This document shows positions 40,401 to 46,400 of a stretch of DNA of 64,000 bases, one piece after another. The DNA is from a virus (Duplodnaviria; Heunggongvirae; Uroviricota; Caudoviricetes). Numbering within the stretch: the first letter of the stretch is position 1; each line of letters starts with the position of its first letter. The stretch lies in the IMG/VR virus record IMGVR_UViG_2939521961_000004, one strand, 5' to 3'. The position numbers are program-made.

Positions 40401-43400
40401 GGGCCCGCGGGTCCTCAGGGGCCGAAGGGTGATAAGGGAGAGCGCGGTGACACCGGCCCTGTCGGGGCAACCGGTGAACGGGGACCGGCAGGTGATGCTG
40501 GTCCGGCAGGCCCGCAGGGGCCGAAAGGTGACAGGGGAGAGCGGGGAGAGACCGGTCTGACGGGAAATGCAGGTCCACAGGGTCCAAAGGGAGATACCGG
40601 TGCGGCAGGCCCGGCAGGCCCACAGGGACCGAAAGGAGAAACAGGTGCGGCTGGCCCGGTGGGGGCAACCGGACCTCAGGGGCCGAAGGGCGACCCGGGG
40701 GAGGCACAAATACGGTTCCGTCTGGGGCCGGGAAACATTATTGAGACAAACAGCAATGGCTGGTTCCCGGATACAGATGGCGCACTCATCACCGGACTGA
40801 CCTTTCTTGACCCCAAAGATGCCACACGGGTTCAGGGTTTTTTTCAGCATTTGCAGGTCAGGTTTGGTGACGGGCCGTGGCAGGATGTCAAGGGGCTGGA
40901 TGAAGTGGGCAGTGATACAGGCAGAACAGGAGAATGACATGAATATACTAAAAAAACTTATGCAGCGTCTGTGTGGTTGCGGAAAGCATGATGGCCGTGA
41001 ACACGTGCAGTCGCTTACAGCACAGCTGCGACTGGGACCGGCAGACATTCTGGAGTCCGATGAGAATGGCATTATCCCGGAGCAGGCCAGGGTAATCACG
41101 CAGGTGGTGATACTGGATGCGGATAAAAAGCAGATACAGTGTGTGGTAAGACCGCTGCAAATCCTGCGTGCTGACGGGACGTGGGAAAATATTGGCGGAA
41201 TGAAATAGCCGACAGCTTCACAAAAACCGGAGTCCGGCTCCGGTTTTTGTTGGTTAGATGTAATCTGACAGATACCTGTATAAATAACCGGTAACTGTCA
41301 GGTCAGAGCTAATACAGGTAATTATATTATAATCACGAGCGCTTAGATGTATTAATACCATGCTCTGCAAGATGCTGCATCAGACGCTGAGCCACATCAG
41401 GCAGAGGTCTTGATTGTTCATTTTGTACCGGCGGCGTTGGCGCAGGCCAGTTAGGTGCCGGAGGAATATATTCAGCCATATTCCGGGCTGGTTGAATGCC
41501 ATGCTCTGCAAGATGCTGCATCAGACGCTGAGCCACATCAGGCAGAGGTCTTGATTGTTCATTTTGTACTGGCGGTGGTGGCGCAGGCCAGTTAGGTGCC
41601 GGAGGAATATGTTCAGCCATATTCCGGGCTGGTTGAATGCCATGCTCTGCAAGATGCTGCATCAGACGCTGAGCCACATCAGGCAGAGGTCTTGATTGTT
41701 CATTTTGTACTGGCGGTGGTGGCGCAGGCCAGTTAGGTGCCGGAGGAATATGTTCAGCCATATTCCGGGCTGGTTGAATGCCATGCTCTGCAAGATGCTG
41801 CACCAGACGCTGAGCCACATCAGGTAGAGGCCGATGTAAAGCGTTTTTTTCTATACTTGACTGAGTATAAGATGTGGGACGTTGAAGTCCTGATTCTGTA
41901 TAAGAATTTTTTACCTTAAAAATAGTTGTTGCACTGGCAGGACTGTTGCTGGGAGAAAAAGGTGAGCTGGTTTTTACCGTGTTAGGTGTGCTTTTGTGCT
42001 GCGAGACAGTGAAGGTACTGCTGCGTATAGCACTTGATATACTGCGAGGAAGGCTGGAAAAAAAAGAATTAATGCTATTTATCATATAGATAACCTTATA
42101 AGAGCTTTATTGGATAGTCTTATTTATCCGTTTACATGAAATCTACCTTTTGTGAAATTCTCGTCAATATTTTACTCAAAATGATCGGCTGTAGGAATAA
42201 ACTATTTGATATTATTACGTTTTTAGGGTTGTTTTCAATCAGCTATAGATAGGGCTTGGCGCCAGAATGGAGAATATTTAACGAGGAATAGAAGCTTTGT
42301 ATCAGACGGGCTTCCCTAAATAGAGAAGTTAAATAATCAGGATGATGCTAATGAATATCAGGGACAAGGTGAGTGTCTTCATGTTCAGTGAAACAGGGTG
42401 TCACAAAAAAGATTGGGGGGGGCTAGAGCCTTCTGCACGAAAATAGTGATGCGACAGATCTGAGATAGCTTTGTATCCTTCTGCCTGGTTCAGGCCTGGA
42501 GCAGTCCATGTTTTACAAAAATACTCGGCAGCGTAACGTGTTGCAAGAGCGGCATCAGACGAGGAACCTGAGGTTCCGCTCATGACCGATAATCTCATCC
42601 GAATAAAAATATACCAATTGGTATACCAAGTTTATACCAAGAGCCAAAAAAGCAAAGGGGCTACCATTTGGTAACCCCTTGATTATTTGGCGGAAGCGCA
42701 GAGATTCGAACTCTGGAACCCTTTCGGGTCGCCGGTTTTCAAGACCGAAGAAAAACAAATAAAAATCAGTGCAATACGTGAAATTGCTGAAAAGTTAATC
42801 AAATTTAACACCAAGAAAAATCAAGGTATTAGGAAGTTGCTCATAGCTAGTATACCAAGTCTTTTTGCCAGAAATTTTTCTGGATTGTCTACTTGCTAAC
42901 CACGAGCGGCAAATCCAGTGTTGGTGTGATTTTTGTTTTACGATCGTAAATCAACACCTGATTTTCTGTTTTATGCCCGCTGAAAATTTGTTTGTCGCGA
43001 CTGCTGCCTTCGTAATCTGAGATCCCCTTGGCTTTTATGTCGTGAAAATTGCACCCGAACGGAACGCCAACTTTTTGCTCGGCTGCGCGTTTAGCCTGAT
43101 TCCACCAGTTATTCAGCGTTTTAGCTATGACTTTCCCGCCTTTGGTTGTATTGATCACATATTCGCATGTACAGGAAGATACATTTCGGGCTAACTGGAT
43201 CGCTGTACGTAATCGCGGTGACCATTCCTTGATTTGTTTGGTGCCGGTTTTGTTTTGCTCAATGTAGATCCCTTTATCCATAATATCCTGCCATTTCAAC
43301 TCAAGCACATCACCGAGTCTTGCCGCACAGAGATAGGAAATCTCCATTGCAATGCGTAACTGTGGAATTGCTTCCGCATATATCGCCGCATACTGTTCAT

Positions 43401-46400
43401 CGGTGATGTAAACAGTGCGGGCTTTAAGAGAGAATTTTCTGACTCCTTTGCATGGGTTATTCTTCACATACCCACGCTCATATCCCCACCCGTATACTCG
43501 ACTCAGGCTTGCCAGTTCATGATTTGCCTGGGTCTTTGAACCGCCCCGGAAATCCTGGAGACTAAACTCCCTGAGAAAGAGGTAAACAGGATGACTAAAA
43601 ATACTCGTTTTTCCCCCGAAGTCCGTCAGCGGGCGATTCGTATGGTTCTGGAAAGTCAGGATGAATATGACTCACAGTGGGCGGCAATTTGTTCCATTGC
43701 CCCAAAGATTGGCTGTACGCCGGAGACTCTGCGTGTCTGGGTTCGCCAGCATGAGCGGGATACCGGGGGCGGTGATGGTGGGCTCACCAGTGCTGAACGT
43801 CAGCGTCTGAAAGAGCTGGAACGTGAAAATCGTGAACTGCGCCGCAGTAACGATATCCTTCGCCAGGCTTCCGCTTATTTTGCGAAGGCGGAGTTCGACC
43901 GCCTCTGGAAAAAATGATGCCACTGCTGGATAAGCTGCGTGAGCAGTACGGGGTCGGACCGGTATGCAGCGAACTGCATATTGCCCCGTCAACGTATTAC
44001 CATTGTCAGCAACAGCGACATCATCCGGATAAACGCAGTGCCCGTGCGCAGCACGATGACTGGCTGAAGAAAGAGATACAGCGCGTATACGATGAAAATC
44101 ACCAGGTATACGGTGTGCGTAAAGTCTGGCGTCAGTTGTTACGGGAAGGTATCAGAGTGGCCAGATGCACTGTGGCACGTCTCATGGCAGTTATGGGACT
44201 TGCCGGTGTTCTCCGGGGTAAAAAGGTCCGCACTACCGTCAGCCGGAAAGCCGTTGCCGCATGCGACCGCGTAAACCGTCAGTTCGTGGCAGAACGTCCA
44301 GACCAGTTGTGGGTGGCTGATTTTACCTGGGTAAGCACATGGCAGGGCTTCGTTTATGTGGCGTTCATCATTGATGTGTTCGCCGGATACATCGTGGGAT
44401 GGCAGGTCTCATCATCCATGGAAACAACATTCGTGCTGGATGCACTGGAGCAGGCGTTGTGGGCCCGTCGGCCGTCCGGCACAATCCATCACAGTGATAA
44501 AGGTTCTCAGTATGTATCGCTGGCCTACACGCAGCGGCTTAAGGAAGCCGGATTACTGGCATCAACAGGGAGTACTGGCGACTCGTATGACAACGCGATG
44601 GCTGAGAGCATCAATGGTCTTTACAAAGCGGAGGTAATACACCGTAATAGCTGGAAAAACCGGACAGAAGTGGAACTGGCCACACTAACGTGGGTGGACT
44701 GGTATAACAATCGACGATTGCTGGAAAGGCTGGGCCATATTCCTCCGGCAGAAGCAGAAAAAGCTTATTATGCTTCCATCGGAAATAATGATCTGGCAGC
44801 CTGAGTTCACAGATAAAATACTCTCCAGGAAACCCGGGGCGGTTCACTTGCTCTCAAGCCCTCGTTTATCCATGAAAATTCTTACCTGCTCAGTTTTGAC
44901 ATTATCAGCAAGCACTTTTCCGAATACCATCAGCAACGCCTTCTGATGTTGTCGATAATCTTTTTGGGTTCGGGGGGCCAGTTCTGTAAATGCAGGGGAG
45001 TCCATAAACATGTGCCATAATTTAGCTACGGTCATTATGTTGTGGAGTTTTGCTTTTTCCAGTTCATAATTTTGCCAGACTTTAGCTACGCTGGTTTTCC
45101 GCACTCTTCCTAGCCCTATACTTCTTGTACTTCCTTCGGGTTTCCACACGTAACTGTAACCATTCGATCTAACCCGCGGTGGCAGTACATTATCTTTTTT
45201 ATTTTTTCTTGGTCTTCCCATTGTTCAGCGCCTCAAAATCGGGTTCAGCAGAAACCAGTTCAGATGTTTTTGGCATCGTTGTCAGACCGTGTGGAATATC
45301 CCTGCGGAGAACTATGGGGTCGTTTTTAGGGCCGATTACAAATGGGATGCCGTGCAGTCTTAACTGGTGTTGCTGTTTTGTGTATCGCTCGTATTTCGTG
45401 ATCTCTTTAATCTCTGCTGGAGATAGAGTTAATTCGTACATGTGGTCACGTGCCTTTACAGCATGACCGCCGCCACTATAGCTGGTGGGCGGCGATATGG
45501 GTTGAACATCAAAAATCAGCCTGACTCGGGAGCAGTTTTTGCCAGATGGCTGAAACGTATTTCGCCTGGTAACGTGCATCGTTCAGAGCGTTATGGCGTT
45601 CACCTTCGAATGGAATAGTCGTTCTTGCGTCGAAATCCATCACCAGTCCCAGAGCAACCATCGTTCTTACATCGCGATCATTGGTGTAACGCCACGGGCA
45701 GGGGATCCCCTGCCGTTCATATGAACGGCGTAAAATCACGTTGTCGAAAGTTGCACCGTTACCCCAGACCTGAACAAAAAATTCACCGGAGTTTTCGTCG
45801 ATAAATTCCCGTAATTGCAGCAGTGCATCATCTAACGGGATTTCATCGGTAAGAATGGCGGATTGCGCTTCGCGTGACTGTTTCAGCCACCACTTAATGG
45901 TGTCCCGATCAATGACTCCGCCAGCAGTTTCCAGATCGATAGTTTTGCTGAATTCTGGCCCCATCTCTCCGGTTTGCGGATCGAAAAATATTGCACCTAT
46001 TGAGATAATCGGGGCATCAGGATTTTTTCCCATGGTTTCAAGGTCGATCATCAGATGAATCCCCGCTCTGCTGGTGGATGTGAGATTATGATGACCGTTC
46101 GCCTTAATTAAGGGATCTGACGCCTCGCCAGTTTCACTATCGCTGGCATGATGCTGATTGCCGCCAGTGTTCTCCTTGTGCTGATGCGCAGTGCCTTCCA
46201 TTTCCTCCGGATCATTTTCCTGAACTTCAGGCTGATTCTCTTCATCGAATATTTCCTGGTATGTTGCGTCACTTATCACCGCACCACAATCAGGGCAGCT
46301 ACCGCCGCCGGTCTGACCGCAGGCGGTGCAGGCTTTTTCCGGCTCCTGTTTCGTTTCTGGCTCGTTTTGTTGCGCATTTGGGCTGTTTTGTTCCGTTTTC

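Follow-up and report, generated by a model that had tools for sequence, protein, structure and literature searches.

The stretch of DNA analysed here, referred to as the window, comprises 64,000 nucleotides of IMG/VR virus record IMGVR_UViG_2939521961_000004 (Caudoviricetes) and closely matches chromosomes of Escherichia coli O26:H11, with an identity of 99.87% to strain NIID080884 over all 64 kb and of 100.0% to strain 6629 over 25 kb. Two lambdoid prophages, A and B, lie in tandem at the tRNA gene serT with B being the second, and the integrase gene of prophage B (intB) is split by an IS629-like insertion sequence (IS). The gene order in O26:H11 records is yccA, intA, prophage A, tccP2, an espV fragment, a 60-nt serT 3' fragment, intB with the inserted IS, prophage B, espK, intact serT and hyaA. 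The window opens approximately 4 kb to the right of intA (the prophage A integrase gene) and closes within prophage B, so that intA is outside of it and was not visible to the initial annotation, which was made from the sequence of the window. The features of the locus are as follows (window coordinates).

42688..42747, minus strand: 3' fragment (60 nt) of the tRNA-Ser(UGA) gene serT, core of the hybrid attachment (att) site, with prophage A to its left and prophage B to its right
42748..42888: int-proximal att arm of prophage B, with 1 base differing from the intA-side arm
42889..43536, minus strand: C-terminal fragment of int, codons 126–339 and stop (remaining core-binding domain, catalytic domain)
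43534..43536: left copy of the target-site duplication CTT
43537..44846, plus strand: IS629-group element (IS3 family), 1310 bp, apparently intact
43537..43549, plus strand: left terminal inverted repeat of the IS, TGAACCGCCCCGG
43591..43917, plus strand: IS orfA, 108 aa, Pfam HTH_Tnp_1
43872..43988, plus strand: ALIL frameshift-stimulating pseudoknot, Rfam RF01497 (121.5 bits, gathering score 50)
43914..44804, plus strand: IS orfB, 296 aa, Pfam HTH_21 and rve (DDE)
44834..44846, plus strand: right terminal inverted repeat of the IS, CCGGGGCGGTTCA
44847..44849: right copy of the target-site duplication CTT, equal to int codon 125 (AAG, Lys, on the minus strand)
44847..45221, minus strand: N-terminal fragment of int, codons 1–125 (arm-binding domain and first half of the core-binding domain)
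45199..45441, minus strand: DUF4224 gene, 81 aa, intact, overlapping the int start; putative excisionase (Xis) of prophage B

The int gene was initially described as split by an IS3-family element with a CTT duplication, and direct reading of the sequence agrees with this, the IS separating codon 125 from codon 126 in a lambda-type int on the minus strand. The removal of the IS and one CTT (deletion of 43537..44849) was also found to give the continuous frame of 340 codons that had been claimed, namely 1020 nt coding for 339 amino acids and a stop, with no internal stop. Uninterrupted genes that match the restored 1020 nt at 100% identity occur in hundreds of E. coli genomes, among them O103, O111 and other lineages as well as O26 strains in which the prophage context is the same, and the empty sites in other genomes hold a single CTT compared with the duplicated CTT around the IS (a 3-bp duplication). 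These natural empty sites confirm the in-silico excision. The separation of 125 N-terminal codons from the catalytic domain was correct as a codon count, with the refinement that the break falls inside the core-binding domain and not at a domain boundary. The N-terminal fragment terminates at a TGA that the final IS bases (44844–44846) form on the minus strand, and codon 126, with which the C-terminal fragment begins, provides no start codon. As translation ends after codon 125 and the catalytic domain lacks a start, prophage B is unable to make its own integrase. In the RefSeq annotation, two pieces of an integrase pseudogene flank an "IS3 family transposase," and the interruption is already recorded as a pseudogene in dozens of RefSeq genomes, being ordinary, known biology.

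A search of the restored frame against integrase families supported its identity, with residues 168–323 passing the Pfam threshold for Phage_integrase (PF00589; 33.5 bits vs. a cut-off of 27.1) and residues 65–157, corresponding to the core-binding domain, giving a weak match to Phage_int_M. On the basis of phmmer searches, lambda Int (PDB 1z1b) aligns to residues 1–319 (E = 5.6e-20), while residues 1–59 align with the isolated arm-binding domain 1kjk (E = 0.048). Alignment to lambda Int places the catalytic positions at R197, K220, H289, K292, H312, and Y321, with five of the six residues of the R-K-H-R-H-Y set conserved. The remaining position, K292 (window about 43033–43035, minus strand), lies in an HDIK motif vs. 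HELR in lambda and has Lys at the catalytic Arg311 of lambda Int. The K292-bearing integrase protein is intact in hundreds of genomes. The protein resembles lambda Int in its full-length alignment, in the position of its gene beside an att site, in the small Xis-like gene overlapping the int start and in the targeting of the 3' part of a tRNA gene. However, it is divergent from lambda Int, as reflected in its Pfam score and in Lys292 for Arg311, its putative Xis is a DUF4224 protein and its target is serT and not attB-lambda.

The element within intB is similar to IS629, IS1203, and IS3411 (IS3 family, IS3 group) with respect to its length of 1310 bp, which is within the range of approximately 1.2–1.5 kb of the IS3 family, its 5'-TG...CA-3' ends, its 3-bp duplication, the sizes of OrfA and OrfB, the −1 frameshift, the ALIL pseudoknot and the DDE rve domain. 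Its inverted repeats match at all 13 terminal bases and at 22 of the first 25. The two reading frames overlap at 43914–43917, and orfA is joined to orfB by a programmed −1 frameshift (annotated as "programmed frameshift" in RefSeq). Nucleotide comparison identified copies with 100% identity in other O26:H11 chromosomes, and an identity of 95.3–96.0% to plasmid copies annotated as IS629 or IS1203 (95.3% to the Shigella flexneri pCP301 copy annotated as IS629 and 95.8–96.0% to IS1203-family copies, these being annotated copies and not ISfinder references). In ISfinder practice, isoforms of an IS share at least about 95% nucleotide identity, for which these values are borderline, and "IS629-like" is a fair label for the element at 43537..44846. 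Three sub-types of IS629 which are 4–5% apart have been reported, one of them related to O26:H11 copies (PMC3271280), and the element in the window, being approximately 4–5% divergent from Shigella IS629 and from the O111 IS1203 type, corresponds to this O26:H11-related sub-type III. Elements of the IS3 family transpose by a copy-out route with a circular intermediate, and the sequence integrity of this one and its many identical O26 copies suggest that it is active.

The interrupted int locus was found, by coverage, in 36 of the 5,426 complete genomes that made up the collection searched. A census with a probe for the junction of prophages A and B listed 30 genomes with the IS at the site, in addition to strain 10159 (at least 31). 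The same junction with an uninterrupted intB occurs in O26 strains 8479, 95_0274, 20.1, 2013C-3252, 2013C-3513, and TW08637, in which intB encodes the same protein as intA (WP_001299351.1). Because these sister strains retain the intact allele in the same context, the IS insertion is a single recent event in an O26:H11 sub-lineage.

Other changes at the gene were observed in individual strains. Strain 10153 (NZ_AP027191.1 1257782..1260288) has a separate IS600 insertion near intB codon 11, and strain 7_26_9A has IS629 plus an extra IS600 in the region, which indicates that the int gene has been struck by IS3-family elements more than once. The left IS junction of CFSAN027346 (NZ_CP037945.1; window equivalent 43534–43537) has a 4-bp deletion and reads CCTGGGT joined to GAACCGCC. 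The deletion takes the left CTT and the first base of the IS, and represents either damage to the IS end or an assembly error.

The initial annotation went on to conclude that prophage B is probably excision-defective and fixed in place, a conclusion which is not supported; an identical IntA, intact att sites and the relocation of the prophage in strain 10159 argue against it. IntA and the restored IntB have no differences over 339 amino acids (two nucleotide differences), and intA is intact in NIID080884, 6629, and 10159; with a cognate integrase in the cell, the prophage does not qualify as excision-dead. Both prophages also carry an intact Xis-like DUF4224 gene over the int start, the products of which differ at one residue in the window. 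A second intact integrase for prophage B, which had been named at the outset as the finding that would speak against fixation, is thus essentially provided by the tandem intA together with the Xis-like gene. With regard to the att sites around prophage B, these are intact. The serT 3' fragment, at which no complete tRNA was found by ARAGORN, lies 141 bp from the int stop, with the same core present at intA and at intact serT, and the att regions flanking prophage B share 151 bp with one mismatch, the 60 serT-derived nucleotides included. Prophage B is probably not locked in place, because the neighboring prophage A encodes an identical integrase. The loss of its own Int is real, but its immobility is not.

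In strain 10159 (NZ_CP074991.1), the IS and the CTT duplication in intB are identical to those of the window, yet prophage A is joined directly to intact serT (2061060) and hyaA, and prophage B is gone from serT. The disrupted allele is hence not at the same position in every carrier genome. Prophage B is present in circularly permuted form inside the Stx1a prophage at wrbA (2096287–2204300), between the left and right parts of the latter, and begins with espK, a tail-fibre-assembly fragment, the core and intB with its IS, which is an attP-type junction. The two recombinant junctions carry reciprocal alleles of a marker single-nucleotide polymorphism (SNP) at window 42647 (A or G), which places the exchange in a 100-bp identical stretch holding the core. 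Comparison of these junctions shows that the IS-bearing prophage B left serT by a clean reciprocal exchange within the att repeat, and that it was taken up again through homologous recombination with tail genes of the Stx1a prophage. The structure is as expected from a circle which was excised after the IS insertion and then captured by tail-gene recombination.

We consider it probable, with good confidence, that the IS629 element in intB of the tandem prophage B has not immobilized this prophage and that IntA is able to serve it in trans. Under this explanation, an active-looking IS629 of the variant typical of O26:H11 would have transposed into intB with duplication of CTT, ending IntB translation after codon 125 with a stop from the IS end and leaving the catalytic domain with no start. 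IntA would then act in trans on the att sites of prophage B, which it should be capable of given the identical integrase, the intact DUF4224 genes and the matching att arms. In 10159, prophage B has left serT by exchange in the att repeat, presumably through this enzyme, and has then recombined into the Stx1a prophage by way of homologous sequence. On the basis of the literature, the disruption is potentially reversible through an IS-excision enhancer (IEE).

Several points weigh against this explanation. The action of IntA on prophage B is one that we infer from sequence, the presence of intA in the window's own genome is deduced from its closest relatives (6629 and NIID080884), and the activity of an integrase with K292 is assumed from its wide distribution. 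The arrangement in 10159 comes from a single public assembly, and the exchange there took place in a 151-bp direct repeat, of which 100 bp are perfect, where RecA could give the same products without an integrase. In addition, Sp3, Sp11, and Sp12 of E. coli O157:H7 Sakai, prophages in which int is disrupted, gave no circular forms in experiments (PMC2669165).

The first of the alternatives is that prophage B is mobile through RecA, acting between the 151-bp direct repeats at its ends, and not through IntA, the split integrase being uncomplemented. The homology at these repeats, including the perfect part in which the 10159 exchange occurred, is enough for RecA. In 10159, prophage B clearly entered the Stx1a prophage, as a second step, by homologous recombination in tail genes, and a comparison of strains shows mosaic tail regions in these prophages. 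However, the exchange interval holds the serT-derived core, which is the expected site of an integrase, and the cell has an identical Int at its disposal. Roughly two thirds of the exchanges made by RecA would land in that interval as well, and the comparative data fit either IntA or RecA. This alternative is to be taken seriously, although we regard it as somewhat unlikely.

The explanation first offered, in which the IS abolishes the sole usable integrase and prophage B is fixed at serT and cryptic, appears improbable. In its favor, IntB certainly has no function in cis, and 30 of the 31 listed IS-bearing genomes retain prophage B at serT beside prophage A. In NIID080884 the prophage has further defects, with frameshifts in the capsid and portal genes and with tail-fibre genes interrupted by an IS66-family element. 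The absence of circular DNA from Sp3, Sp11, and Sp12 also favors this explanation, and indicates that int loss can immobilize a prophage when a cognate Int is unavailable. Two of these, Sp11 and Sp12, we take to be tandem neighbors. The Sakai prophages (Asadulghani et al., 2009; PMC2669165) are like prophage B in being lambdoid, effector-carrying prophages of enterohaemorrhagic E. coli (EHEC) in which int is inactivated. No supply of an identical Int in trans has been described for them, however, whereas prophage B has one from its tandem partner, along with Xis and intact att sites, and in its IS-bearing form has moved away from serT in one strain. Strains without the IS also keep prophage B at serT, so that its staying there is uninformative on the effect of the IS. 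Finally, an assembly or sequencing artefact, or a juxtaposition of halves of unrelated genes, is refuted by the same junctions in 36 independent complete genomes, by the perfect inverted repeats with a 3-bp duplication and by the 100% identity of the restored sequence to intact genes.

With regard to loss of the IS, IEE-mediated removal of IS3-family elements was reportedly described by Kusumoto et al. in 2011. An IEE is reported to be present in O26:H11 on an SpLE1-like element and to remove IS3-family elements, and it restores an IS600-disrupted lacZ in O121:H19 (PMC9397093). In models of IEE-type excision and in related systems, deletions near the length of the IS are joined at microhomologies of 2–4 bp. 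A 2023 paper in Nucleic Acids Research on IEE was found to contain no text on excision junctions. The intB locus is like that lacZ case in that an IS3-family element inactivates a gene in a lineage of Shiga toxin-producing E. coli reported to carry iee, but differs from it in that the sole hint of excision is an allele of reference strain 11368. In this strain (NC_013361.1 1220381..1221401), intB is without the IS, has a length of 1021 nt and is frameshifted by one extra T, located exactly at the IS insertion site (window 43534–43537; GGGTCTTTGCTC vs. GGGTCTTGCTC). The +1 T allele is unique to 11368 among the complete genomes searched. A deletion of 1312 bp across a TT microhomology, as opposed to the precise 1313 bp, would yield it, and the extra T may be a scar of imprecise IS excision, the alternatives being an independent slip or a sequencing error. 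The reverse order, in which the IS inserted into an ancestral +T allele, was rejected, as duplicating either CTT or TTT in GGGTCTTTGCTC would not give the right flank of the window, CTTGCTC.

A phylogeny was attempted with 25 kb around the locus, but almost all differences were in recombinant tail-gene blocks (window 34,300–41,050); outside of these only private SNPs were present (45319; 47413 and 47417), and so no usable signal on the nesting of 11368 was obtained. Nothing usable came from searching the literature for an O26 phylogeny in which these strains are named. As a clade marker, a second IS629 copy (11368 902862..904171) is common to 11368, 10153, and approximately 25 genomes with IS629 in intB, and is absent from genomes with an intact intB and from approximately 10 with IS629 in intB. 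As each of the four combinations of marker and intB state is found, they do not decide which way intB changed in 11368. Strain 10153 shares the marker yet has a clean intB site without a scar, which weakens the interpretation of the 11368 allele as a scar. A reading that joins these observations, in which IntA excises prophage B (as in 10159), the circle is recaptured by the Stx1a prophage and the T in 11368 is the scar of an IEE-promoted imprecise excision of IS629, is put forward as tentative.

It is well documented that insertions of IS629-family elements in prophage genes generate variation in EHEC, and the present insertion in itself matters little. It does urge caution, as a broken integrase is insufficient to call a prophage fixed when it lies beside a twin with the same integrase and att site, and equally so where its host has a system for IS excision. 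The effector genes here are tccP2 in prophage A and espK in prophage B (the latter beyond the window), and continued mobility of the two prophages would bear on the reshuffling of type III effector genes and, by recombination, of Stx phage modules in O26:H11. If the tentative joint reading of 10159 and 11368 is true, tandem twin prophages would buffer each other against IS damage, and IS insertion followed by sloppy removal would be a route to permanent frameshift inactivation of EHEC prophage integrases.

Other features were observed in the two prophages. At the right end of prophage A, a TccP2/EspFu-type gene (41333..42085, minus strand) encodes a proline-rich effector of 250 aa, in which a 47-aa repeat of the EspF type occurs four times (Pfam EspF, E = 5.5e-109), and is followed by the espV fragment at 42410..42592. 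The blocks in which nearly all differences between O26 strains lie (34300..41050) are within the tail genes of this prophage (J, Lom and tail fibre), and this mosaic indicates recombination among resident lambdoid prophages. In prophage B, an 816-aa protein annotated as an exonuclease (45509..47959, minus strand) adjoins xis/int; its first 630 residues gave no Pfam match and its C-terminal 170 residues match Rv2179c-like 3'-5' exoribonuclease (E = 9.7e-66). The early region of prophage B has two toxin-antitoxin pairs, labeled according to the RefSeq annotation of the matching record, namely HigB with a helix-turn-helix antitoxin (49921..50585, plus strand) and RelE/ParE with ParD (58147..58709, minus strand). 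The two prophages also have the same set of three tRNA genes (13068..13317 and 62392..62643, plus strand), their anticodons being CAT, TCG, and TCT; the gene with the CAT anticodon is assigned to Met by ARAGORN and to Ile in RefSeq.

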